DNA of 64,000 nt, from positions 30,412 to 94,411 of the IMG/VR virus record IMGVR_UViG_3300032038_000041; one strand, written 5' to 3'. Below are positions 1,505-50,061 of the stretch, piece after piece. The position numbers and the translations under genes are program-made. Position 1 is the first letter of the stretch; every line of letters begins with the position of its first letter. The notes under the pieces are model-generated. The model was not told where the DNA came from. It saw only the letters and a list, made by a program, of their open reading frames with translations, and made no database searches. Origin of the DNA: a virus (lineage: Duplodnaviria > Caudoviricetes).

Positions 1505-4234
1505 ATGGAAGATATTAAACTTAGTAAAGATCTTGCTTCAAGGCTAAAAGAATCATATGAAGTTGCAAAAAAAGAAAACCTTAATATGGTTACATTAGAA
1601 AACGTACTCTATCAAGTATGCAACATCTATTGTTCTGGTAGTGGAGACGACGAATCATTAAAGAAATTCTTCTCTGATATGAGAGAACAGGATAGACAAA
1701 CTATATATAAAACAGCAGAACAAATCTTTGAAACTAATAAGGTTACTCTGCAAGTTCCTGATAAACTCAAACCAGATGAAGAAACTGGAATAACATTATC
1801 AAAACTTCTTAAAAAAGTTCTTACAAAAGCTAAAGACAGAAAACAAGCAATGTCTTTTGTAAGTGAAGATGAAACTCTCGAAGTTACAACTGATGTATTC
1901 TTTCTTGAGATTATTGATCATCCAGATTGTACTCTCCTCAACAGAACAAAAGTAAAAGTTAGTGATTTAGAAGATGCTATTAGATTTAATAGTTTTGCAG
2001 AGGCTCTTTCTAGTGGATTTGGAACTCTAAAAGAGAAAACTATTGAAACAAAAGATGAAAGCACAGGTTTGGATGAATTTTTAAAGAGTATCGGATTTAA
2101 ATCAGAAGCAAATAAAGTTGATATGAAAAAAGATGATGAAGAGTTTGATAAAGCAGGACAAAGCGAAGCAGTAAGCAGTAAAGCTGTAGACCCAAACTCC
2201 AAAACCCCATTCCTTGATCAATTTTCAGTTAATATGACTAAAGATGCCAAAGCAGGGAAGTTTGATCCTATGATTGGTCGACAGAATGAACTTGAACAGA
2301 TTATAAAGATTCTCTGTTGCCGTAAAAAGAATAATGTTCTTGCAATAGGACCTGGAGGTGTTGGTAAAAGTGCTATCGTTGAAGGTCTTTCACAGAGAAT
2401 TGTAACAAACCAAGTTCCACTTGAACTTCAAGGTAAGCGAATCTGTAGTCTTGATCTTAATGCTCTTGTCTCTGGTACTAAATATAGAGGCGAGTATGAA
2501 GAGAGATTGCAAGGAATTATCAAAGAAGTTTGTGATAATAAAGATATCATTGTTTATATTGACGAATTCCATAACTTAATAGGTAATGGTGGTGCTTCTG
2601 GATCTGGAGACGGTGCGAATATTCTTAAACCTTATCTAGCTCGTGGTGAGTTTCAATGTATTGGCTCAACCACCGATGATGAGTATAGAAAATATATTAA
2701 AGACGGAGCTTTAAAAAGACGTTTCCAGATTGTAAGAATTAATGAGCCTACGGAAGAAGAAACTGTTCAAATTCTTAAAGGATTAGCGCCTAAGTATGAA
2801 GAATATCATAAAGTTAAGTATCCCCTTGCCACACTTAAAGCATGTGCTGAGTGGTCTGGACGATATATAACTGAACGATTCTTCCCTGATAAAGCAATTG
2901 ATCTAATGGATACTGCAGGAGCTCAACTCAAACTCGAGAAAGTTCATGATACAACTGAAATCGATGAAGTAAAAACAGAGATTGAGAAAATAAAGAAAGA
3001 AAAACAAGATGCAGTTGAAGCACAAGACTTTGAACTAGCTGCACAGAAAAGAGATGAGCAGGTGAAACAACAAGAAAAACTGGAGTCTCTCTTAAAGGCT
3101 ATGGAAAAGTCAGAAAATAATAGAAAATTCTGGCCTGAAGTAACCGTAAATAATGTAGCTTATGTAATTTCTAATCTCAGCGGAGTACCTATTGATAGTA
3201 TCTACCATTCAGACTTTAATAAACTTAAGTCAATGAAGGACGAACTTAAGTCAATGGTAATTGGACAAGATGAGGCTATTAATGAGGTTTGTACTTCATT
3301 GCAGAGAAACTTCTTAGGATTTAGAGATGAAACTAAACCTATTGGAAGACTCTGCATGCTCGGTGTTAGTGGATGTGGTAAAACCTATCTGGCAGAACAA
3401 ATCGCTATTAAACTTTATGGATCTAAGGATGCTTTAATTAAAGTTAATATGGGTGAGTATGCAGGTGATAGTGACATTAACCTCAGTAAACTTATTGGTG
3501 CAGGACCAGGATTTATTGGATATGATGATAAACCAATCCTCGAAGAAGTAAGTGAGAAAAGACACTGTATCCTCTTGATTGATGAGGTTGAAAAATCTAG
3601 TAAAAAGGTATTTGATATTTTCTTGAACATCCTCGATAAGGGTGAATGTACACTTGGAAATGGAAAAGTAGTAGACTTTAGAGATACTATGATCCTCTTT
3701 ACAGGAAACCTTGGAACTAAGGAACTTGGAAAGGTAGGATCTGGTCTTGGATTTAATAAGGCTACTACAAAGGAAAGCCAACAAAAGCTAAATCAAGAGA
3801 CAGTAATGAAGGCAGTCAAGAAAACCTTTAGACCAGAATTCATTAATCGACTTGGAGGAATAATTATCTTCAATAACCTTGGAAAAGATGAACTGAAGAA
3901 AATATTCGTTCTTGAATTGGATAAACTAAAAACAAGAATGAAAAAACGTGGATATAATCTTAAAGTCACTAATGCAACTAGAGATATGATCATTGATAAG
4001 TGTGATCTTACTTATGGAGCTAGAGACCTTCAAAGAGAAATCCAGAAATATGTTGAAGAGGAAGTTTGTAATGCTATGCTCCTTGGAGATGAAGAATCTT
4101 TTAAAAGGATTACAGAAGCAAATGTAGACTACAAGGATGGAAAAGTGATTGTAAACTTCAAATATAAAAAACAATCCATACATACAACTCCTTCTCAACA
4201 GGAAACAAAAGAAGAGGAAGTTCAAAATGTTTAA
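1505..4234 (+). CDS. clpC: ClpC-type Clp/Hsp100 AAA+ ATPase
   Basis: Two AAA modules (GPGGVGKS/YIDEFH and GVSGCGKT/IDEVEK), KYRGEYEERL pore loop, UVR-like AVEAQDFELAAQKRD, FRPEFINRL, YGARDL. Confidence 0.92.
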   Translation: MEDIKLSKDLASRLKESYEVAKKENLNMVTLENVLYQVCNIYCSGSGDDESLKKFFSDMREQDRQTIYKTAEQIFETNKVTLQVPDKLKPDEETGITLSKLLKKVLTKAKDRKQAMSFVSEDETLEVTTDVFFLEIIDHPDCTLLNRTKVKVSDLEDAIRFNSFAEALSSGFGTLKEKTIETKDESTGLDEFLKSIGFKSEANKVDMKKDDEEFDKAGQSEAVSSKAVDPNSKTPFLDQFSVNMTKDAKAGKFDPMIGRQNELEQIIKILCCRKKNNVLAIGPGGVGKSAIVEGLSQRIVTNQVPLELQGKRICSLDLNALVSGTKYRGEYEERLQGIIKEVCDNKDIIVYIDEFHNLIGNGGASGSGDGANILKPYLARGEFQCIGSTTDDEYRKYIKDGALKRRFQIVRINEPTEEETVQILKGLAPKYEEYHKVKYPLATLKACAEWSGRYITERFFPDKAIDLMDTAGAQLKLEKVHDTTEIDEVKTEIEKIKKEKQDAVEAQDFELAAQKRDEQVKQQEKLESLLKAMEKSENNRKFWPEVTVNNVAYVISNLSGVPIDSIYHSDFNKLKSMKDELKSMVIGQDEAINEVCTSLQRNFLGFRDETKPIGRLCMLGVSGCGKTYLAEQIAIKLYGSKDALIKVNMGEYAGDSDINLSKLIGAGPGFIGYDDKPILEEVSEKRHCILLIDEVEKSSKKVFDIFLNILDKGECTLGNGKVVDFRDTMILFTGNLGTKELGKVGSGLGFNKATTKESQQKLNQETVMKAVKKTFRPEFINRLGGIIIFNNLGKDELKKIFVLELDKLKTRMKKRGYNLKVTNATRDMIIDKCDLTYGARDLQREIQKYVEEEVCNAMLLGDEESFKRITEANVDYKDGKVIVNFKYKKQSIHTTPSQQETKEEEVQNV

Positions 4235-21283: not shown

Positions 21284-24200
21284 ATGGCAGTAAGTCTTGA
21301 ATTATTAACAGACGATGATATTATTGATTACACCAGAAGTGATGGTAAGGATCGAATATTAATCAATCATCGTGACTTAGATTTAAAGCGAAATATTCCC
21401 TATCCAGTAGCTGGAGGTGTCTATGATACAGAGATCTTTGGCTCACCATTTGAGGATAGATGTATTTGCGGAAAAATCAGACGATCTTCTTCAGAGCCTT
21501 GCCCTAATTGTGGAGCTAGAGTTTTTACTAAAGAAGAAGGTCTTAGACGATTTGCTAGAATTGAACTCCCATTTTACTACCTGAATGACTTAAGATTTGA
21601 AATCTTTAAAGATCTTTTTGATCAGATTTTTGAAGGTGTAACTATTAAATTAGACTTCCAAGGAGATGATCTTAGGAATGATGGTTATACTGGTAGAGGT
21701 GCTAAGAAGTTGGGAATTAAAATTTTTGATACTTGTGAGTTTACTTATAGTAAAGCTAAAAATACACTTACTATTTCAGAATTTATAACTGATGAAAAAA
21801 AGTGTTCTTATGAAGGATTACTTGCAATTATTGAGAAATATTTTCCTGAGCATCTTACGGAGTTTAGAAAAATGATTAACCGGTATTATATTGTTTTACC
21901 GGCTATGATGCGACCTTTCTCTCTTGCTATGAGAGGAACAAGCAAAAAGATGAATTCTCACAAACTTAGTGTATGGTATTCAATTATCATTAGACTTTGT
22001 TGTGTAGATGATATAAAGAGTAATACCTCAAATTATAATGAGGTTATGGCACGATTCACTACTCCTGGGGAGCGAGTTAGATATACAGCCCTTTTACGAG
22101 CATTACTTAACGCTGGTAAGAAACAGGCTACAGATCTACTTAATACTTCCAGGAAAAATGAAGCCCGTGAACTTTACTCTGTTCGTGTTAAGAATTCAGC
22201 CCGTGCTCCTATTATTCCAGATACAGAATTACCAGTTGATGAAATTGGTGTACCTGTATATCTGGCCTATGAGATGTGTCGAGAAGGCTTTATTAAGTAT
22301 TTACAGGAACAACTTAATTTCTCGAAAGAGGAAGCTATGAAGACTACAAAACAAGAGGCTATGAATCCTGAAACACAAAAATTATTTAAAGAATATGCAG
22401 AAACGCAAGTTGTATTGGTAAACCGTCAACCGACACTTCATGAATATAGCATTTTTGCGATGAAGATGCGTGTCGTAGATGGAGATTGCATACATTACCC
22501 ACTAGAATTATGTGGGCCGTTGAATGCTGACTTTGATGGTGATACAGTTTCGCTTACTCTTGTTCCTGAAGAGGCGAAAGATGACACTATGAAAAAAATG
22601 AGCCCACGTTATTCAAAAGTTTATAAAAAGAACCTTGAACCTATATTTGTGTTTAATCATGAAACACTTAATGGAGGTAATGTGGCTACTACTTATGATT
22701 TCGAAGATCCTATTGAATTAACAGAACCTAGACATTATTATACTGACTATGCTCAGCTTTTACAAGATGTTGAAGTAGACAATAAAATAAAATATGGAAC
22801 TCCAATAGTATTTACCGGAAAAGTAGGTGAACTTGAATTTAAAAATAAAATTACAACGTATGGACGATTAAGGACTTCTAAGATAGTTGGTAAAGATATT
22901 GATGAGCTTGGAATCTTTAAAACTCCATATGAAGCATTAAAAGCAGGTAGTGCTGGAAAACTTGTTCACTATCTGTATAAGAGCGATGATTTTGTCGAGA
23001 AAATGAATGAACTACAAAAATTTTGGCTTAAAGTAGTTTCTAAAGCCGGAGTAGTTACATTTGATTTTAAGACATTGTATGTAGATACTAATTCCGAGAC
23101 ATACAATAAAATTAAAGATGTTGTAGACTCTGCAGATCTTACTGATAAACAAAAACTTCTTCTTGTTACCGATCTTTATGCAAAGTATGAGAAAGAGATT
23201 GAAGGTAGATTTAGCGATGACCTGAGAGAAGAACTTAGTCGAGCAAATCGAGTTAAGATTCACTCAATTCAGGATATTAATATGCCTCAAATGATCATAC
23301 AAGGTACTCAAGAAAAAGTAGTTGTAAATAAAGGATCTTTGTTAAGCGGTTTAACTGAAAAAGAGTATATTTCACATTCTATAGAAAATAGATCGCTCCA
23401 AAGTATCAAAAATAGTGGCGTCAATTACAATGGGGTGCGCCCTTTAAACTGTACGTAATTGCTGGAAGGAATTAAAATTTATATAAAATGTAAAAAGTAA
23501 ATTAGAATCAGCAACTTATTATGATGGAAAAAACAATTAAGTTTTTATCAGCGGTTGGCCTAGTTCTTGGAGCTATGGGAGAGATGTTAAAACAAGTTAA
23601 TCTTTACCAACAAGCCCAAAAGGTTGTGGAACAGGCTGAAAACGTGACTGAAGTAAAGTAATAAGATCAACGACTATACGTATGGCGCTTGTGAAAGTGA
23701 TGATATAGTCTGCCCTAGGATGAAAATCTTAGGAAACCACCAGGAGAGGTTAAAAGCTTCTCCATAGACCCCTTGGTGGATACTTAACCCGTCAGATTTC
23801 TTTCCTCTTAAATAATTATGTTTTTGATGAAAAAGCATCTGATCCAAAAAATCCAGGACTCTTAATCCCTAGATATATTGCAGCAGGTAGAACAGCTCCT
23901 AATGGAAAAATCTATTCTGAGGTAGTTAAGAAGAATGAAGATGACTTGGTACCAGTAAGAAGTATTGTTACAAAGAAAGATGGAAACCTTAGTGTAGTTT
24001 CACCTGATCATTTCAGTCAACGATTCCGTAGTATTGGAATTACTAATGGAAGTGCTATAGGTGCATCATTAGGTACTTCTCTTACTGAAAATATTACACA
24101 AAGTTTGCTTGCACTTAAGCATGGTGGTCATGAAAGAGTACTTGACCTATCAGGTAATCTATATGCCCCTAAAGATTGCACGTTTAGAATTGAAGGACGA

Positions 24201-25574: not shown

Positions 25575-28500
25575 ATGTCAAATTTTAATCAGTATTTCAA
25601 GAACACGGGAGCAAAAATTATGGTAGAGCGATTCTTTAAAGGAATCGATATGTATAATCCAAAAAACAAACTGAAAAATCTAAAGTGGTATATTGAGCCC
25701 GAGCCAAGTCAGCCAGCATCTTATTATGTTGAGAATGAATTGACAGCTACTCACAAAGTACATATAGATTATACAGTTAATGATGGACCAGAAATTCTTA
25801 GCTCTGAATTTGAAGTTCCTAGAGAAATTGATGGTGTATTTATCATTGAAGGAGCTTATAGAATTGCTACGAATACGCTTGGTTCGGATTATGATTGTCG
25901 AATTCAAATGTCGGGAACTAATCCTTGGAAAATTAATTTCGACTATAATCGCCAATATGATATTGCTAAGAAAGTTCTAAGAATTAAGAAGATTAATCCA
26001 GATCTCGGTGTTCAAGAAAAAGTAAAAGAGTATAATCTTGATGAGATTGATAATATAAAAGGAGAAGACTTAGAAGCATTACGGCTTACTGAAAGACAGC
26101 AGAAAAAGTTTCAAATTAAGCTTGATATTGATTATAAGCCTGAATTTATTACTAGAAAACTCATCGAAGACTGCTTAGCCTACGGGGATGATAGACTTAA
26201 AGACTTGATCATTGATAAAAATATTGAGTCAGTTCCACAAGGGTTTATTAACTTCCTATTCAAAAGTGGTAAAGGAAGAAATTTCTTTGCAGCTAGACGA
26301 AAAATAACCTCTTACTGGACAAAATTTAGTAAGCTGCCTGATCCTGCTAACTCTATAACTCTTTTATGTCAAAAACATTGGAAAGGATCTTCAGAAAGTG
26401 CTAAAGGAGGTAGTGAAATTCAAGTTCCACCTGGTATTAATTCACAGAATTTAAGTTCACTTGGGGAAAAGATTATGATACCTGACTCGGTTGCATATAA
26501 TACATCATTTGCAGACTTAATTGATATTGCAGATACACCTATTAACCAATCGAGTAACCGTATTAATGCACTTACTGTTTCTACTCACTTAACAGATGAT
26601 AAAATTCTTTTTGATTGTTATTCCAAAGACTTCAAGAAGATTACAATTGATTATCTTGACTACCTTAACTCAAAAATAGTAACAAGTGAGTATGTAGACT
26701 ATGATGCTAGAGAGATTAAGCCAAATAAAGATGGACAAATCGAAATTAAGCATCGAATGAAAAGAAAGATGGTATCAGCAACAGATTATGATTTTGTTGA
26801 CTTACCACCTGATTATCGACTCTCTTCAACAACACGACGAATTCCATTTTTAAACTTTACAGATAGTGTAAGAATTGAGATGGGAAGCGGTATGTTAAAA
26901 CAAGCAATACCTTTGCCAAATGCAGAAAGACCACTTGTTGACACCGGAAATGTTGAAGAGTTAGAAAATAATATTCTAAATGAAAAATTTAGACTTCCTG
27001 AGGGAACTGTAAAAGAAATCAATGACGAAGAAGTTCTTATTCAACTCCCAGGAAATGATGAGATTAGTGTTCCTAGACGTACAGCAATACAAAGCGCTAA
27101 TGATGTTGATATCTTTACTGAGCCTAAAGTTAAGGTTGGACAGAAAGTTAAGGAAGGTGATATTATTACTGGTGCTGTAGGCGTAGAGAAAGATACATAT
27201 AAAACTGGAATTAATGCATTGGTCTTGTTCCATGCAATGTTTGGTTATGTAAATGAGGATGCTGTTGTAGTATCAGAATCATTTGCTAATAAAATGTGTC
27301 ACTATTCACTTATTGACTTAACTATGGATGTTAAAAATTCAGAAGCTATTAAGTGGATTGCACCAATAGGAACTCGTGTAAAATCAAAAGATAGAGTAAT
27401 GACTGTATATAAAGCAGTAAGACTTGATGAGATTAATAAGAAACTTCAAGAACAACTTGGAGGAATTCTTGGAAACCTTGATCAGTATACTGTAGAGACA
27501 GGATTATCTGTTCCGAATAATATAGATGAAGCAGTTGTTACTGATGTTATAATTCAGGAAAATAAGAAGCCAAGGATCCCTAAATCAATAAAAAAGCCGG
27601 ATTATTCGTTTGCTAAAACAAGTCAAACTGTAATTGATGACTATGAAAAAACAAAGGATCGTAAGCCAATATATGATAAATATCCTGAATATATAGCATC
27701 TGATACTCTGGATCCCGTAAATCTAAAGGATAAAAATTATAAAGTTGTCTATACCGTTAGAATCCGACTAATTAAGAGAACTACTTTAATGTTAGGTTCA
27801 AAAGTTACAAACCGCTATGGTGGTAAGGGTGTTATATCAAAAATCTTACCAGACAACTTAATGCCAATAATGGTAGATAAACAGGGGAATAAGAAGGTTA
27901 TAGATATTGTAATGAATCCATATTCAACAATCAATAGAAAGATACCATCGGTTCTCCTAGAAAACTCCCTAGGATTAATCATTCATCGTTTACGGGACAT
28001 GGTGGAGGAGTATAAGGGAACTAAGACAGGTCAAAAGAAAATTAAACCTCTCTTAATGAAGTACTATCCAGGCCGCTTTGATAATATGACAGTTGAGGAA
28101 ATCATACAAATGCATAATTCTAGCAGAATAGAAGAAATGTATTATATGAATGTTGGATGTTATTCGACAAAATTTACTCCTGATCTTGTTACAAAATGGA
28201 TGGAAGAACTTGGTGTAGAACCTCAATCCAAGATCCTAATGCCACAAACTGAAATTGCTGATCTTAAAGAACTTAAGGAAACCCTAAGTGAAGAAGAATA
28301 TCAAAAGGCAGTTTCAAAAATGACTGGAAAGTTTGTAGAAGTAGATAAACCATTGATGTGTGGTTATATAACATTCTTAGAGCTTTTCAAGATCCCATAT
28401 TATGATGAAAAAGCAACGTCTAGTATGTTTCTGCCAGATGGAGATATTAATCCATTTAAGGACTCGCCAATTATGTCCCATGGTAAATATAGAACAACTG

Positions 28501-28733
28501 GACAAAAGATCGGTGAGATGGAGTTAACTGCTTACTTAGCCCGTGGAGCAAAACAGTTTATTGAGTACTCTCGTAGTGATACATCTACACAAGATTCTAT
28601 TGAATTTATGAATAACCTTCTTGGACTTGGTGTAACAATCAAGAATGAAGAGGGATATAATATGGGAGCATCAAGTCTTAGAAATAGTCTTGGTGAAATG
28701 AAGGTTAAATTTAGACTCAAAAATAAAAAGTAA
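25575..28733 (+). CDS. rpoB: RNA polymerase beta-like subunit
   Basis: GVFIIEG, DTP, RIEMGSGMLKQAIPL, GYVNEDA, GSKVTNRYGGKGVIS, DIVMNP, GQKIGEME. Confidence 0.9.
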   Translation: MSNFNQYFKNTGAKIMVERFFKGIDMYNPKNKLKNLKWYIEPEPSQPASYYVENELTATHKVHIDYTVNDGPEILSSEFEVPREIDGVFIIEGAYRIATNTLGSDYDCRIQMSGTNPWKINFDYNRQYDIAKKVLRIKKINPDLGVQEKVKEYNLDEIDNIKGEDLEALRLTERQQKKFQIKLDIDYKPEFITRKLIEDCLAYGDDRLKDLIIDKNIESVPQGFINFLFKSGKGRNFFAARRKITSYWTKFSKLPDPANSITLLCQKHWKGSSESAKGGSEIQVPPGINSQNLSSLGEKIMIPDSVAYNTSFADLIDIADTPINQSSNRINALTVSTHLTDDKILFDCYSKDFKKITIDYLDYLNSKIVTSEYVDYDAREIKPNKDGQIEIKHRMKRKMVSATDYDFVDLPPDYRLSSTTRRIPFLNFTDSVRIEMGSGMLKQAIPLPNAERPLVDTGNVEELENNILNEKFRLPEGTVKEINDEEVLIQLPGNDEISVPRRTAIQSANDVDIFTEPKVKVGQKVKEGDIITGAVGVEKDTYKTGINALVLFHAMFGYVNEDAVVVSESFANKMCHYSLIDLTMDVKNSEAIKWIAPIGTRVKSKDRVMTVYKAVRLDEINKKLQEQLGGILGNLDQYTVETGLSVPNNIDEAVVTDVIIQENKKPRIPKSIKKPDYSFAKTSQTVIDDYEKTKDRKPIYDKYPEYIASDTLDPVNLKDKNYKVVYTVRIRLIKRTTLMLGSKVTNRYGGKGVISKILPDNLMPIMVDKQGNKKVIDIVMNPYSTINRKIPSVLLENSLGLIIHRLRDMVEEYKGTKTGQKKIKPLLMKYYPGRFDNMTVEEIIQMHNSSRIEEMYYMNVGCYSTKFTPDLVTKWMEELGVEPQSKILMPQTEIADLKELKETLSEEEYQKAVSKMTGKFVEVDKPLMCGYITFLELFKIPYYDEKATSSMFLPDGDINPFKDSPIMSHGKYRTTGQKIGEMELTAYLARGAKQFIEYSRSDTSTQDSIEFMNNLLGLGVTIKNEEGYNMGASSLRNSLGEMKVKFRLKNKK

Positions 28734-30186: not shown

Positions 30187-32340
30187 ATGGCATCAATTAA
30201 AAAAAGAAATGGCTTTATAGAAGATTTTGATCTTAAAAAGGTTCGAAAAGGTATTAGAAATGCAATGAAGACTGGTAGTGGTGAATATTTTCCACGCCTA
30301 GTAGATGCAATTACTAATGAACTTAAAGATCTACTAAAAGATAAAGAAAATGATGTAATCACTGGTTCTGATATTGATAAATTTATTATAAAACGCCTTC
30401 GGGACTACGGTCAAGCATCAACTGCAACAAATTATGAGAGATATAAAACTCTTAAGTATTATCAAAAGTCGAGGGGCATAGTTGATAATGAAATTGATGG
30501 ATTAATTTCTGGAACAAATGAGGCAGTTATTGATGAAAATTCAAACAAAAATTCACATCTAATCTCTACACAAAGAGACCTAATTGCCGGAATTGAATCT
30601 AGAAATTATGTAGAAAGAAAAATAATGCCGTTGAATCTACTCCAGGCACATCAAGAGGGATTAATTCATATTCATGATACAGATTATATGATTCACCCAG
30701 GAATCTTTAATTGCCAGTTAATTAATCTTAAAGATATGCTTCAAAATGGAACTGCAATTAATGGCAAAAAAATAGAAAAACCAAAGTCAATTCAAACCGC
30801 TGCAACTATTGCAACACAAATTAGTCTTCAAGTAGCTAATGGTCAATATGGAGGACAGACATTTAGTCTATCACATCTTGCTCCATTCGTACGAATATCT
30901 TATAATAAATATGTTGATAAGCTTACTGAGGAATATACTAAACTGGGAAAAGAACCTGACTTAGATATTATTAAAGCTCAAGCTGAAAAACTTACTAGAG
31001 ATGAGGTAAAAAGTGCCGTACAAACTATCCAATTTCAAGAGAATACATTTTCTTCTAGTAATGGCCAAACTCCATTTGTATCAATCTTTATGTATATAAG
31101 TGAAGAACCAGAATATGAGAAAGAGACTGCTATGCTCATAGAAGAAACTATTCGTCTAAGATATCTCGGAATGAAAAACAAGGATGGTGTGTATGTTACC
31201 CCTGCTTTCCCAAAGTTACTCTACGTTCTCGATGAAAACAATGTCCCAAAAGATTCAAAGTATAGATATCTTACGGACTTGGCTGTTAAAACTGCTGCAA
31301 AGAGAATGAATCCTGACTTTATCTCCGCTAAGATAATGAAGAAAAACTATGAAGGAAATGTATTTCCATGTATGGGATGTAGATCCTTCTTAGCACCTTG
31401 GAAAGATGAAGAGGGGAATTATAAATTCTATGGAAGGTTTAATCGTGGTGTCGTAACTATAAATCTTGTAGATGTAGGTTTGTCAGCAAGAAAAGATGAA
31501 AGTAAGTTTTGGGAAATCTTAGATGAACGTCTTAACTTGTGTAAAGAAGCACTAATCCTCAGAACTAAACTTATCAAAGGAGCAACATCTGATGTATCAC
31601 CTATTCATTGGCAAGATGGATCCGTTGCTCGACTAAAATCAGGTGAAAAGATTGATAAGTATCTTGAAAATGGATATAGTAGCATTTCTCTTGGCTTTAT
31701 AGGACTACATGAAATGTGTATGGCAATGTTTGATGAGAGTCTTACATCTGAAAAAGGAAGCGCATTTGCATTAAAAGTCCTGCAATACCTAGCAGATACC
31801 TGTACTAAGTGGAAGACTGAAGAATATCTTAATGGAGCTTCCTTATATGCAACACCATCAGAATCATTATGTTATAAGTTCGCATGTAAAACCGCTAAAA
31901 GGTTTGGTGTTATAAAAGGCATAACTGATAAAGATTGGTTCACAAATAGTTATCATGTAACTCCGACAGAAGAAATTGATGCATTCTCAAAACTAAAATT
32001 TGAAGCTCAATATCAAAATATCTCTAAGGGTGGTGCTGTTAGCTATGTTGAAGTTCCTAATATGGAAGATAACTTAGAAGCACTTGCACAGGTAATTGAT
32101 TTTATGTATGATAATATTCAATATGCTGAGATAAATACTAGATGTGGTGATGTTTGCTCTACTTGTGGATATCAGGGCGAAATTACTGCAGATAAAGATG
32201 GCGTATGGACTTGTCCTAATTGTGGCGAGACAAATAGAGATAAACTAACAGTTGTTCGTCGTACTTGTGGATATATAGGTTCAACGTTTTGGAATAAAGG
32301 AAAGACAGAAGAAATTAATGAACGAGTATATCATCTATAA
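30187..32340 (+). CDS. nrdD: anaerobic (class III) ribonucleoside-triphosphate reductase
   Basis: ATP cone, HIHD, QYGGQT, MGCRSFL, TNSYH, C-terminal Zn CxxC pairs, RRTCGY glycyl radical site. Confidence 0.97.
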   Translation: MASIKKRNGFIEDFDLKKVRKGIRNAMKTGSGEYFPRLVDAITNELKDLLKDKENDVITGSDIDKFIIKRLRDYGQASTATNYERYKTLKYYQKSRGIVDNEIDGLISGTNEAVIDENSNKNSHLISTQRDLIAGIESRNYVERKIMPLNLLQAHQEGLIHIHDTDYMIHPGIFNCQLINLKDMLQNGTAINGKKIEKPKSIQTAATIATQISLQVANGQYGGQTFSLSHLAPFVRISYNKYVDKLTEEYTKLGKEPDLDIIKAQAEKLTRDEVKSAVQTIQFQENTFSSSNGQTPFVSIFMYISEEPEYEKETAMLIEETIRLRYLGMKNKDGVYVTPAFPKLLYVLDENNVPKDSKYRYLTDLAVKTAAKRMNPDFISAKIMKKNYEGNVFPCMGCRSFLAPWKDEEGNYKFYGRFNRGVVTINLVDVGLSARKDESKFWEILDERLNLCKEALILRTKLIKGATSDVSPIHWQDGSVARLKSGEKIDKYLENGYSSISLGFIGLHEMCMAMFDESLTSEKGSAFALKVLQYLADTCTKWKTEEYLNGASLYATPSESLCYKFACKTAKRFGVIKGITDKDWFTNSYHVTPTEEIDAFSKLKFEAQYQNISKGGAVSYVEVPNMEDNLEALAQVIDFMYDNIQYAEINTRCGDVCSTCGYQGEITADKDGVWTCPNCGETNRDKLTVVRRTCGYIGSTFWNKGKTEEINERVYHL

Positions 32341-32831
32341 TGAACTATTTTAAAATAAAAAAATATGACATCGCTAATGGAAAGGGAATTAGAACCTCCC
32401 TTTTTGTTAGTGGATGTACGTTTCATTGTAAGGGCTGTTTTAATTCCGAAGCATGGGATTTTAAATCTGGAAAACCATTTGACGATAATGCTAAAAAAGA
32501 ATTATTTGAACTATTATCAGACCCTCACTGTGTAGGCTTAAGCGTATTGGGCGGAGAACCATTAATGCAAGGACAAGACCTATTAGATCTTCTAAGAGAG
32601 GTTAAAGAAGTATTTCCAGATAAAAATATATGGTTATGGACTGGATTCTATATCAATGAATTAAATGACTTACAAACACAAATTATATCTTTAGTAGATT
32701 ATGTAGTGGATGGAAGATTCGAAGAAAATAATGCACTAAAGAAGTATCTATTTCGAGGCTCATCTAATCAAACTATTTGGGAAAAAGATGAAAAAGGAAA
32801 TTTTGTAAGAAGTAAATATAATGATATATAA
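32340..32831 (+). CDS. nrdG: class III RNR activating protein (radical SAM)
   Basis: NGKGIRTSLFVSGCTFHCKGCFN, LGGEP, RGSSNQ. Confidence 0.96.
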   Translation: MNYFKIKKYDIANGKGIRTSLFVSGCTFHCKGCFNSEAWDFKSGKPFDDNAKKELFELLSDPHCVGLSVLGGEPLMQGQDLLDLLREVKEVFPDKNIWLWTGFYINELNDLQTQIISLVDYVVDGRFEENNALKKYLFRGSSNQTIWEKDEKGNFVRSKYNDI

Positions 32832-33212: not shown

Positions 33213-33491
33213 ATGAAAAAGTCAAAAAGAACAAAAAGTAATGACCTGGCTAAAATCTTAAGAATGATTAGTCGGGATGAAGAACTTGAAAGAAATGACG
33301 GTAAATGGGTAGCTATGAACCGTGTATTCAAAGACAAGAAAAAGTACGATAGAAAAAAGATGAAAAAGGACTTAAGGGATGACCTTGGGTCCTTATCTTT
33401 TTTACAAAAATTAAAGGGAGAACTTAATCTCCCTTCTTTTTTATTATTTCGAAACCATGAATTCTTTTACCATTTTCTCTATACTGAATAG
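33213..33491 (+). CDS. small basic protein, candidate ArfA/BrfA-like ribosome rescue factor made from a non-stop mRNA
   Basis: SRDEE..G...RVFKDKKKYDRKK; intrinsic terminator at 33366-33403 lies inside the ORF before any stop codon. Confidence 0.55.
   Translation: MKKSKRTKSNDLAKILRMISRDEELERNDGKWVAMNRVFKDKKKYDRKKMKKDLRDDLGSLSFLQKLKGELNLPSFLLFRNHEFFYHFLYTE
33366..33403 (+). terminator. intrinsic terminator inside ORF 33213-33491
   Basis: AAGGACTTAAGG-GATGA-CCTTGGGTCCTT followed by ATCTTTTTT. Confidence 0.75.
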
Positions 33492-35463
33492 CTTTGACTT
33501 CAAACCACTGATTAATATCTTCGGCTTTGGCTGTTTTATTATTCCCTACCTGATTATAAATATTTTGAATACTAGCCTTTAAAGATATCTTACTAATCCT
33601 ATCACCTATATTAAATTTTGAATAAATTAGAGAATTAATATTATCCTTATTAGATTGTTCAATGATATTTTTCTGATATTCAGCCTCAATCTTGGCCTTA
33701 GTATAACTTCCAGCTTTTATTCTTTCTACTCCTAAGGTTATAATATAGTTCTTATATTCCATTGGGATAGAGTTAATTAATAATTCAAAGCCAGACTCTT
33801 CAAGTATATCCTTTTGATCGCAGATAAATTTCATCCTATCCCTAAATGTTTTATACTTATAATTAAAATCATTTAAGATCTTGTCAAATTTATCCTTATT
33901 TGTTGATACATTGAAATCTGATAAATTACTAAAGACAGCAAATCTATCCTTATAGTCATACTCTTGAATTTCAAAAGTTCGCATTTCAGATATCATCATA
34001 AGATCATTTTTAACCGGTACTGCCATAGATCCCGCGTGATGATTAACGGCTACAAAATCCGTCTTATAGTTTGCATTTTTAGCATCTCTTTCATACTTCT
34101 CTACTAAGGCATCTTTATCCTCATCGGGTAATAATGTATAAGCCTTTAGTAGACTCTCTGTTTTTCTAAGTTTAATCTCAAGATAGTTTTTAAACTCTTC
34201 TTTACTTTTATCACCTTTATATTTTAAAGTTACATATAAATCAGCACTATTCTTCCATGGGTTTTCTATTAATCTCTGTCTACCTAAAATCTGTGGTAGG
34301 TCTAAGGAAATATCTACTGATAAGCAGTCTATATTAGCGTTACTAAAGATATAAGATTTAGCACAGGTACTATAAAAATCAGCACCTAAATATACCGTCC
34401 TAGTGCAAAAGGTAAAGGTTTTATGTGGTTCTCCTTTCTTTGGAACTCTACCGATAAATGGTCCATCTGATTTCTTAAGACCAAAGGCTCTCTGAATAGT
34501 GGTTTCATTTGTCGGAGTCTTAGCTATAAGAATATTACACTGATCCGGTGTAAGCTTATTTAACTTTATGGCCTTTGCAATATCTTTAACGGAATTGACA
34601 TAAAACACAGCCTCTTTACTTTCAATCTCTTTAAAATTGCCGTGTTCATCTTTATAGCGATATGTATCATAATTTCCTGTTGTATATTTTAAGATTACTT
34701 TAGCAATTTCAGCTTGAATAGTATTTCTCTTACCACAATACTTCACATTAAGATTTGGCTTCATTATCCTTCCAGGCTGTTTAGAATTCCAGTCTAGTTC
34801 AAAGTAAGGTAAGTCTTTAAATTCATCTAACATCTCTAGATATTCTTTTATCATTGGAGTTGCACTAACATATACAACTCTATTTAATCCCTGAAGATGA
34901 CCTACAAATTCTAATTCAGAACTTGACTTGAATTTAGCGTCAGTGAAGATGCTCTGAAATTCATCAATAACTACATAAAACTTCTCTATATCTTCCCCTA
35001 ATGCTTCTTTAACATGACGAAAAGAATCATACGTTACTAGGATTTTACAAGGTTTTCTTTCCTGAAATGGACTAGGTTGACATGAGTTCCAATAATCTAC
35101 TACTCCTTGTTTTAATTTCATAATTCTAAGCTTTTTATCTTCCTCAGAAAGTTCTTTAAACCCTAAAGATTTCAAATCTGGCCTAGAACTTGAAAAATCC
35201 TTTTCAAAATTAATGCCTCTTTCAACTTCATTTCTCACATAATAAACGTTACCCTTATGTTGATCCTCTTTATTCTCTAAGAGTATCTTACGTGGTGAAC
35301 ATAGTATAATATTCATATTATTTCTAATACAATATTCAGTATACCCGCAACCAGTTAAAACTTTGTTTAGTATGTGAGGAAATTGATAATGTTCAAGAGA
35401 GTATTCTTTCCAATTACTGATATATCTTATACCAGTTGGTACTTTAATTGATTTAATTTCCAT
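33424..35463 (-). CDS. SF2 (DExx-box) helicase-like protein, paralog 2
   Basis: LTGCGYT, VIDEFQ, VSATP, FCTRTVYLGADF, QILGRQR; colinear with 5979-8000. Confidence 0.8.
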   Translation of the reverse strand: MEIKSIKVPTGIRYISNWKEYSLEHYQFPHILNKVLTGCGYTEYCIRNNMNIILCSPRKILLENKEDQHKGNVYYVRNEVERGINFEKDFSSSRPDLKSLGFKELSEEDKKLRIMKLKQGVVDYWNSCQPSPFQERKPCKILVTYDSFRHVKEALGEDIEKFYVVIDEFQSIFTDAKFKSSSELEFVGHLQGLNRVVYVSATPMIKEYLEMLDEFKDLPYFELDWNSKQPGRIMKPNLNVKYCGKRNTIQAEIAKVILKYTTGNYDTYRYKDEHGNFKEIESKEAVFYVNSVKDIAKAIKLNKLTPDQCNILIAKTPTNETTIQRAFGLKKSDGPFIGRVPKKGEPHKTFTFCTRTVYLGADFYSTCAKSYIFSNANIDCLSVDISLDLPQILGRQRLIENPWKNSADLYVTLKYKGDKSKEEFKNYLEIKLRKTESLLKAYTLLPDEDKDALVEKYERDAKNANYKTDFVAVNHHAGSMAVPVKNDLMMISEMRTFEIQEYDYKDRFAVFSNLSDFNVSTNKDKFDKILNDFNYKYKTFRDRMKFICDQKDILEESGFELLINSIPMEYKNYIITLGVERIKAGSYTKAKIEAEYQKNIIEQSNKDNINSLIYSKFNIGDRISKISLKASIQNIYNQVGNNKTAKAEDINQWFEVKAIQYRENGKRIHGFEIIKKKGD

Positions 35464-35569: not shown

Positions 35570-35930
35570 AGAGCAAAATGTCACCATTTTTTGGAAATTA
35601 TTTTGTATCTACCTTATAAGTCTCATTTTGGTTAAAATTGAATAAAAAATAGTGACACCTATTCTCACAGATCTTACTTCTACCTTATTCCCTCACTCCA
35701 CTTCGTTCGGTCAATGATAAAGTTTCAGGAGTCTTATTCAATAGCGTAGCTGCCAAAGCGTTAAGCGAAGAGGGTTAAACGAGGGACGGACTTTGTCCCG
35801 AGTACCGATGAGTAGCTTTGGAATGCTTCTCTTACATAGAGCCGGGGTGGGAGCGTTAAGTGAAATGAGGAATGAAGTGACGAATGGAACAAGCGAGTGG
35901 CGGATGGAATCCGGGCAGGCCGGGATTTCT
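35570..35930. other. inverted repeat plus GNA mini-hairpin region upstream of helicase-like copy 2
   Basis: TGTCACCATTTTTT..AAAAAATAGTGACA inverted repeat (35579-35657); motifs CACTTCGTTC, AGCGTAGCT, GGAATGAAGTGACGAATGG, CGAGTGG shared with 5040-5670. Confidence 0.7.
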
Positions 35931-36100
35931 TTTCTATTATATGTCAGATCCTCTCAAGTCGAAGAAAAAAAAGAAAGAGGATTATGTTTTCCCCTTTCCT
36001 TTTTCTTTATTCTTTTTAAGTTGTTCTTTAAACCATGGAAGATATGCCTGTTTAAACACCACCTTACCTGCTACTACGCAGACTTGTCTAATAAACTCTT

Positions 36101-48441: not shown

Positions 48442-50061
48442 ATGGAAGGAAAAATTATTAAACAAGGAACTTCTGCACAAGAAGCTATTATAGAGGGTGT
48501 AGTTAAAACAGTTGATGCTATCAAGACGACAATTGGACCTGCTGGTAAGGGTGTTGCTTTGATTAATATGGGATTCCCTGAGATTACAAGAGATGGAGCA
48601 ACAGTTGCTAAGTCTATTCAATTCTCAGACCCTGCACAAAATATCGGTGCACAAATGGTAAAAAAAGCAGCAACACTTACAGAAGAGCAAGCAGGCGACG
48701 GAACCAGTTCAACAAGCCTTCTTATTAAAGAACTATGTTTGAAAGGCCGAAAAGCTGTTCAGACTGGATCTAATGTTAATGAGGTAAAATCTGGTATGTT
48801 AAAAGCAGGAAAGTGGATGGATGAATTTATTAAAAAGTCTTCTACTCCAATTAATGGTGACTTTGATCTAATTGGTAAAGTAGCTACTATTTCTGCTAAC
48901 AACGACCCAGAGGTAGGTGCCCTGGTTGTTCAGGGAATGAAGCAGGTTGGAATTGATGGACTTCTTACTGCAGATGCTGCATCTGGACTTGATACCGTAA
49001 TTGATATTACAACAGGTATGAAGCTAGACCGAGGTTGGAGTTCTCCTCAATATATTACTGATCCTACAACAGGTGAATGTGTAATGGAGAATCCTTATGT
49101 CCTCGTAGTAAGTGAAAAGATTTCATCAGTGAATCAAATAGCACCTCTTATGCAATCTCTTATGAATGAAGGAAATGGACGTCCAATGCTTATCCTTTGT
49201 GATAGTATTGATGATAATGTAAACACTGTACTCATTCTTAATGTATTGCGTGGAGCTTTACGCTGCTGTGTCGTACAAGGTGTTGATTTTGGTGATAATC
49301 GCAAAAATCTTATGAATGATGTAGCAGTTGCAACTGGAGCTACATATATTTGTGCTGAGAATGGTATTGCAATGGCAGACGCTACTCTTGCAAATCTAGG
49401 AGGTGCTAATAAGGTAGTTGTTTCTAGAGACTCTTGTATTATCTATGAAGGTCAGGGTGATCCTCAAGAGCTACAAAATCTAGCTTCTAATCTTAAAGCA
49501 CGAATGTCAGATCCTAAAAATAGTGATTATGATAAGTCTAAATTTGAAAAGCGACTTGCCAACCTAACTGGAGGTATTGCTATTATAAAAGCTGGTGGAG
49601 CAACTGAGGCTGAGAAGATGAATCGAAAGGCAACTATTGAGGATTCTATTTTAGCTGCAAAAAGTGCTATTGCCGAAGGATTTGTTCCTGGCGGTGGTTA
49701 TGTATACTTTAAAGGTGCTCAAACAGTAGAACGAGATAAAACCTTCTGGAAGAACTTAAAGGGTGATGAAATAGAAGGAGCACGTATCGTTTTCTCCAGT
49801 CTTCCTATCGTAATGAGGACGATTGCTGAAAATAGTGGTACTTCAGGTGATGTTATTCTTGAAAGCATTAGGCATAAAAAAGATAATGTGGGCTATAATG
49901 CAAAAAAGAAACATTTTGCCAACCTTCTAGATGATGGTATTCTAGATAGTGCTAAAGTTATTCGTGTTGCATTGGAAAATAGTATTTCTACTGCATCTAT
50001 GATCCTACTAACAGACTGCATTATTATGGATGAACCAGAAAACAAGATTAAAGAGGAATAA
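48442..50061 (+). CDS. groL: chaperonin GroEL
   Basis: TIGPAG, ITRDGATVAK, AGDGTS, VATISAN, GMKLDRG, KRLANL, VPGGG. Confidence 0.95.
   Translation: MEGKIIKQGTSAQEAIIEGVVKTVDAIKTTIGPAGKGVALINMGFPEITRDGATVAKSIQFSDPAQNIGAQMVKKAATLTEEQAGDGTSSTSLLIKELCLKGRKAVQTGSNVNEVKSGMLKAGKWMDEFIKKSSTPINGDFDLIGKVATISANNDPEVGALVVQGMKQVGIDGLLTADAASGLDTVIDITTGMKLDRGWSSPQYITDPTTGECVMENPYVLVVSEKISSVNQIAPLMQSLMNEGNGRPMLILCDSIDDNVNTVLILNVLRGALRCCVVQGVDFGDNRKNLMNDVAVATGATYICAENGIAMADATLANLGGANKVVVSRDSCIIYEGQGDPQELQNLASNLKARMSDPKNSDYDKSKFEKRLANLTGGIAIIKAGGATEAEKMNRKATIEDSILAAKSAIAEGFVPGGGYVYFKGAQTVERDKTFWKNLKGDEIEGARIVFSSLPIVMRTIAENSGTSGDVILESIRHKKDNVGYNAKKKHFANLLDDGILDSAKVIRVALENSISTASMILLTDCIIMDEPENKIKEE

Follow-up and report, generated by a model that had tools for sequence, protein, structure and literature searches.

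A small basic gene with a terminator inside its reading frame

We analyzed a window of 64,000 nucleotides, positions 30,412 to 94,411 of the IMG/VR virus record IMGVR_UViG_3300032038_000041 (94,411 bp, estimated to be 25% complete). Downstream of nrdD (30187-32340) and nrdG (32340-32831), which match Pfam NRDD and Fer4_12, and of a 113-aa ORF, the window carries a small ORF that runs through an intrinsic terminator and into a convergent 679-aa gene (Table 1). The window is a fragment of a jumbo phage, as seen from its hallmark genes and from relatives of the small gene on viral contigs of 218-412 kb, in agreement with the sequence-only reading made before this analysis, which had called the gene phage-encoded. 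The host of the phage is a gut or rumen member of the Bacteroidales.

The stem within the reading frame consists of 12 pairs, among them 5 G-C and 2 G-U, and is followed by the T-run that ends at 33403 in the pattern scan. On the + strand it folds at -18.1 kcal/mol (z -4.6), a value matched by 0 of 200 shuffles, whereas the - strand reaches only -11.5 kcal/mol because the two G-U pairs turn into C-A mismatches. There are no stop codons in the reading frame upstream of the T-run, so that termination there would leave about 62-63 sense codons on the transcript. The small basic ORF with an in-frame 12-bp-stem terminator at 33366-33403, described earlier from the letters alone, was thus present as described, and its predicted transcript end after about 63 codons without a stop agrees with our count. 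The same reading had placed the remainder of the ORF antisense to a helicase gene. The antisense overlap was recovered (33424-33491), but the helicase assignment found no backing, as the 679-aa gene had no match in Pfam or PHROGs. By eye, this gene contains DEFQ and SAT-like motifs that would suggest an SF2 helicase or a nuclease. A second terminator overlaps its stop codon (33424-33426) and, judged from its position and folding, is a back-up to the first terminator on the + strand and the predicted end of the convergent gene on the - strand. The part of the small ORF beyond the first terminator is probably not translated, or destabilizing if translated.

Table 1. Positions in the window of the small gene, its terminators and the convergent gene.
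Feature	Position	Strand	Basis or remark
Candidate rescue-factor gene, nominal ORF of 92 codons plus TAG stop	33213..33491	+	Conserved over the first ~55 codons only
Part predicted to be translated when the transcript is terminated and stop-less, ~62-63 aa	33213..33401	+	AF2 model; length of stop-codon homologues
Signature basic motif KDKKKYDRKK, codons 40-49, with invariant Tyr45 (33345-33347) and Arg47	33330..33359	+	Alignments
Stem-loop of the in-frame intrinsic terminator, 12 bp with 5-nt loop	33366..33394	+	Pattern scan, folding
T-run ATCTTTTTT, predicted transcript 3' end within the frame; Phe/Leu codons in the nominal ORF	33395..33403	+	
ORF tail, hydrophobic and non-conserved; antisense to the convergent gene from 33424	33404..33491	+	
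Second terminator, bidirectional	33413..33444	both	Pattern scan (33413-33436), folding
Convergent 679-aa gene	33424..35463	-	Context only

The protein of the window has a basic N-terminus, a helix, an extended segment and then a basic tail, and its residues 37-49 read RVFKDKKKYDRKK. The AF2 model (mean pLDDT 87.8) places a helix at residues 12-27, an extended stretch at 28-46 (containing KWVAMNRVF) and a further helix at 47-60.

Several other features of the record were noted. Two genes at 21284-23458 and 25575-28733 resemble split multisubunit RNA-polymerase beta genes, 1505-4234 encodes a Lon-like ATP-dependent protease (PHROG E 9e-189) and 48442-50061 encodes GroEL (E 1e-123); an SbcC-like gene and an NAD ligase are also present. 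Thirteen tRNA genes lie just upstream of the window (G000:C1:14993-26160; loci L105 and L106), and one of them, with anticodon CUA (tRNA-Pyl according to ARAGORN), would be an amber suppressor. Recoding of stop codons was considered and rejected: TAG ends 3 of the 44 window ORFs of at least 150 aa, reading through TAG does not lengthen the window ORFs, and recoding cannot create a missing stop. On the + strand at 35725-35935 there is an island of higher G+C (0.42-0.44 against ~0.29) that has no long ORF and ends in a hairpin, TCCGGGCAGGCCGGG, with a T-run at 35910-35934; it had no Rfam match, and its folding energy was no better than that of shuffles (z 0.22). The window as a whole had no Rfam match at the gathering score, and a blastn search of the region against 50,697 phage records returned no match.

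A protein family with two gene forms

A search of 5.8 billion protein clusters recovered 157 relatives of 59-107 aa, and 1.84 billion representatives, searched with a profile, yielded 149 clusters at 50% identity. None of the relatives carried a name. Comparison of the family with Pfam, NCBIfam, PHROGs and PDB sequences gave no meaningful match, and a Foldseek search of the AF2 model against the PDB returned nothing. DUF7230 was considered as a possible assignment, given weak Pfam matches in 6 of 73 members (best E 0.013) and a score of 0.89 in a language-model atlas, and was dropped as it did not exceed its cut-off in 201 Bacteroidota genomes.

With dN/dS of 0.05-0.06 over codons 1-48, the ORF is a real gene whose protein is under purifying selection. 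The family consensus is ..YIKA....RE.ELERNGG.WVA..R.HKNKKKYDRK, in which R21, Y45 and R47 are invariant, and the basic stretch at its end can be written as the motif K-[ND]-K-K-K-Y-[DN]-R-K. Past about residue 52 the homologues turn rich in Phe and Leu, also at the place of the T-run, and then diverge wholly in sequence and length.

Members of the family were found on viral contigs that range from 52 to 412 kb, with eight above 200 kb, on rumen and gut metagenome contigs, and on chromosomes of Prevotellaceae, Muribaculaceae and other Bacteroidales, which bears out the earlier mention of similar small proteins in Bacteroidota. The cultured isolate Segatella paludivivens DSM 17968 is one of the carriers and has the stop-less form (locus L019). 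In a six-frame profile search, 36 of 401 sampled Bacteroidales genomes (~9%) were positive, each with a single copy; a sample across the phylum gave 3 positives among 201 genomes, and all three were already matches in the Bacteroidales sample.

The sequence-only reading had named a homologue search with a check of terminator conservation as one way to examine its proposal. For this we anchored the loci on the invariant Tyr codon and took, within the 160 nt beyond it, the best hairpin with a T-run behind it. Of 91 non-redundant loci, drawn from phages and Bacteroidales chromosomes, 62 have an in-frame intrinsic terminator at the corresponding position, an outcome that favors the proposal. In these 62 loci the hairpins fold at -9 to -24 kcal/mol and start 3-23 nt past the first base of the Tyr codon, the terminators end at 43-61 nt, and the stop codon lies 54-729 nt from the Tyr codon (median 93), always after the terminator. 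Contexts and stems differ among the 62, and in none of them does a stop codon fall between motif and T-run. Two further loci with late stops fell outside the thresholds and probably belong to the terminator group as well.

The stems vary by clade, with at least nine clearly different cores, for example GGACTTAAGG, GAGTTAAGG, GAGCTGAG, GGGAATTTAG, GGGAGTTGGGC, AAGGCAGA, GAGGGTAAG, ACATCCGGAA and GGAGGCTGT. A single-linkage clustering of stems at 70% identity was discarded, as the A- and T-rich flanks merged unrelated stems. The pairing itself covaries: in 30 ungapped loci, 98.2% of the cells of an 11-pair stem were paired and two-sided changes occurred in 6 of the 11 pairs, giving a covariation score that was reached by 0 of 500 shuffles. 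When the 3' partner was moved by 1-3 columns as a control, pairing was only 27-62%. Several of the compensatory changes are synonymous on the 5' arm and change the amino acid on the 3' arm (TTA/AAC to CTG/AGC), which argues that RNA structure, and not peptide sequence, is kept there. The tails after the terminator are hydrophobic, unconserved and variable in length, and could not be aligned.

The surroundings of the gene are less constant. The order ORF204-nrdD-nrdG-ORF113-gene is common to the window and one other locus only (L026), which indicates that the terminator travels with the gene and not with its neighborhood. Three further loci (L140, L142 and L144) also have the ORF tail antisense to a convergent gene. 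None of 16 phage loci had a tRNA or tmRNA adjoining the gene, and the neighbors at bacterial loci are unrelated housekeeping or ordinary metabolic genes.

The remaining loci show that the design is not universal. About 27 of the 91 have no hairpin near the motif and an ordinary stop codon 11-17 codons past the Tyr, giving products of 56-62 aa; this form includes a clade of rumen Bacteroidales MAGs. Homologues with a stop before the hairpin had been named beforehand as an observation that would speak against a non-stop message. There were none among the terminator loci, and the ~30% of the family with stop codons lack the hairpin. For the stop-less form, about 62-65 aa would be translated from transcripts ending in the T-run, and both forms are thus predicted to yield a protein of ~60 aa. 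Loss of trans-translation was considered as the cause of the stop-codon form and set aside, smpB being present in all five such genomes tested. With ~30% of the family in the form of ordinary stop-codon genes, gating by tmRNA is not essential to the function of the family. Taken across the loci, we are highly confident that the stop-less architecture is a conserved and selected trait of a new protein family.

Likeness to known rescue factors

The gene of the window invites comparison with brfA (yqkK) of Bacillus subtilis, which has 71 codons and an internal rho-independent terminator and gives a product of ~62 aa; this product receives the SsrA tag and is degraded as long as trans-translation is not deficient (PMC6881298). 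BrfA has helices at its N-terminus, one short strand and a C-terminal tail of positive charge (PMC6881298). Both genes have an in-frame terminator, both specify a small basic protein (~62 aa for BrfA, a predicted ~62-63 aa here), and in both proteins a segment of helix and strand type is followed by a basic tail. They differ in range, which here is the Bacteroidales and their phages and not Bacillus, and in that some members of the present family have normal stops. A search of the family profile against all PDB chains, which should include the BrfA cryo-EM chain, returned none at E <= 10. The Lys-His motif of ArfA and BrfA, which in BrfA contacts U534 of 16S rRNA, is absent from the window protein, which has no His; most family members have H-K ahead of the basic motif and not K-H behind it.

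In arfA of beta- and gamma-proteobacteria, a stem-loop leads to termination or to RNase III cleavage and so to a non-stop mRNA, and the terminal residues are poorly conserved and hydrophobic (PMC8012679). The present family shares with it the internal stem-loop and the unconserved hydrophobic tail, and has a basic K-x-K-x-x-Y-x-R-K stretch that may correspond to the one in ArfA. It differs in an unrelated N-terminal half and in using a classic terminator where E. coli has an RNase III site. The Pfam model of ArfA (PF03889) did not match the window protein at E <= 10, nor did it match any of the 73 members or the phage record, and hhalign of the family against ArfA gave a probability of 0.2% (E 0.26) with an ArfA alignment of low diversity, made of enterobacterial sequences only. 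The best local match in that comparison pairs KNKKKYDRK with KGKGSYMRK of the ArfA segment that lies in the mRNA channel, and is short and not significant. The family is therefore like ArfA and BrfA in gene design, as read from the sequences, and is not a demonstrable member of either. Accordingly, the earlier description of the gene as ArfA/BrfA-like holds for its architecture and finds no support in homology, given the missing ArfA model match, the hhalign result and the empty PDB search.

Two other systems bear on the comparison. ArfT of Francisella tularensis is a very small release-factor-dependent factor without similarity to ArfA, which indicates that such rescue factors arise independently (PMC8012679). 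Compared by description, it is of ~40 aa and is not reported as the product of a non-stop mRNA. ArfB and SmpB's C-terminal tail each probe the empty mRNA channel with a basic tail, and by analogy the same may be proposed for the present family. ArfB differs in having its own GGQ hydrolase domain, a length of ~140 aa and an ordinary stop codon. No ArfA or BrfA is listed in a 2024 survey that covered 1,956 genomes of the FCB group, a superphylum to which the Bacteroidota belong (PMC11633108), and the rescue niche is therefore open in this group. No such factor, be it from Bacteroidota or from phages, turned up in our literature search.

Proposed role and competing explanations

The distribution of other rescue components was compared with that of the family. 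ArfB is the alternative rescue factor otherwise carried by Bacteroidales, and its model (NF006718) exceeded the cut-off in 131 of the 401 Bacteroidales genomes. The family and ArfB occurred together in a single genome, with a weak family match (Fisher P = 8e-6, not corrected for phylogeny), and 235 of the 270 genomes without ArfB also lack the family. On the phage side, five carriers of the gene were searched for tmRNA, and carriers only; all four jumbo-phage records among them with a completeness of 90% or more (295-410 kb) encode one. The tmRNAs in the records of loci L021, L024, L028 and L034 scored 47.9-78.8 bits against an Rfam gathering score of 47. These phage tmRNAs adjoin clusters of tRNA-like matches.

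Release factor genes were also inspected. In most of the Bacteroidales prfB (RF2) sequences sampled (L109-L138), the match to the model begins at position 12-14 and the open frame spans ~345 aa, a pattern consistent with the usual +1 frameshift site. The prfB of Segatella paludivivens (L107:1480-2607) is a single uninterrupted frame of 375 codons.

The best explanation of the gene, and one that we hold to be somewhat on the probable side of even, is a backup ribosome-rescue factor gated by trans-translation. The mRNA would end at the in-frame intrinsic terminator, giving a stop-less message for a basic protein of ~62 aa, and ribosomes on this message would stall at its 3' end. As long as tmRNA-SmpB of host or phage has spare capacity, the nascent protein would be tagged and degraded; were trans-translation saturated or blocked, untagged protein would build up. 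It could then bind stalled ribosomes with an empty mRNA channel, as ArfA and BrfA do, placing the basic K-x-K-K-K-Y-x-R-K tail in the channel; a class-I release factor, recruited by the helix and strand ahead of this tail, would free the peptide. For the phage, such a protein may maintain the recycling of ribosomes while truncated mRNAs flood the infected cell. We infer gating by tmRNA, ribosome binding and release-factor recruitment by analogy. On the other side stand the lack of detectable homology to ArfA or to any solved chain, the missing Lys-His motif and the stop-codon members, and the RNA polymerases that jumbo phages encode themselves may not obey the terminator.

The same architecture would also suit a sensor of trans-translation capacity with another job, such as ribosome silencing or hibernation, an RNA- or DNA-binding protein of stress or takeover, or a protein that modulates tmRNA or release factors during phage infection. 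In favor of this reading, which we consider possible if rather unlikely, the protein has no homology to any rescue factor, small Lys/Arg-rich proteins bind many kinds of nucleic acid, and the members with stop codons show that the protein is useful also when made constitutively. However, arfA and brfA, the only known conserved stop-less genes, both encode rescue factors, and rescue is the role that best suits the feedback logic. The order of helix and strand followed by a basic tail, the length of ~60 aa, the near-exclusion with ArfB and the co-occurrence with phage tmRNA likewise point to rescue. A protein that is itself a peptidyl-tRNA hydrolase of the ArfB kind is scarcely credible: some members do read ERNGGGQW or ERNGGGQF at residues 27-33, but the motif is not conserved (RNDGKW in the window, NGGRW, HGHP and NVGF in other clades) and there is no RF-1 domain.

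Other explanations would deny the hairpin its role in gating. It could be the mere terminator of a gene or operon in a compact genome, with read-through or processing giving a full-length functional protein and the overlap carrying no regulatory meaning. Phage and Bacteroidales genomes are indeed compact, the hairpin of the window also ends the nrdD-nrdG operon, and coupled translation can suppress a terminator within an ORF. Yet this explanation appears improbable: the tails are unconserved, end anywhere between 54 and 729 nt beyond the Tyr codon and in many cases lie antisense to the gene that follows, all 62 loci, of varied context and stem, lack a stop between motif and T-run, and the synteny of the window is shared with only one other locus. 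An ORF that passes through a terminator also resembles an attenuator, in which translation of the ORF as a leader peptide would govern termination at the hairpin for downstream genes. We judge this highly improbable, as a convergent gene lies downstream in the window and at L140, L142 and L144, the N-terminal 50 residues are strongly conserved as protein, and no alternative anti-terminator structure was seen in the window.

Returning to the rescue reading, its wider form is that an independently evolved stop-less rescue family stands beside ArfA and BrfA, that it is the missing release-factor-dependent backup of the Bacteroidales, and that it has been captured by jumbo phages, which operate it together with tmRNA of their own in a private rescue circuit during infection; to this combined proposal we give an even chance. 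Reviews have held that more small factors that recruit release factors probably exist and are not findable by sequence similarity (PMC8012679). The family described here offers a concrete candidate rescue factor in a dominant gut and rumen order, and a first indication that phages carry such a factor beside their tmRNAs, while Segatella paludivivens DSM 17968 gives a cultured carrier for experiments. A conserved terminator in a conserved small ORF is moreover a searchable signature for genes gated by trans-translation. If the family is indeed a new and independent group of rescue factors, it would have been found through a genomic signature and not through homology, and a search by that signature could be extended to other phyla. 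Since rescue pathways are targets of antibiotics, knowledge of the backups present in Bacteroidales has practical value.
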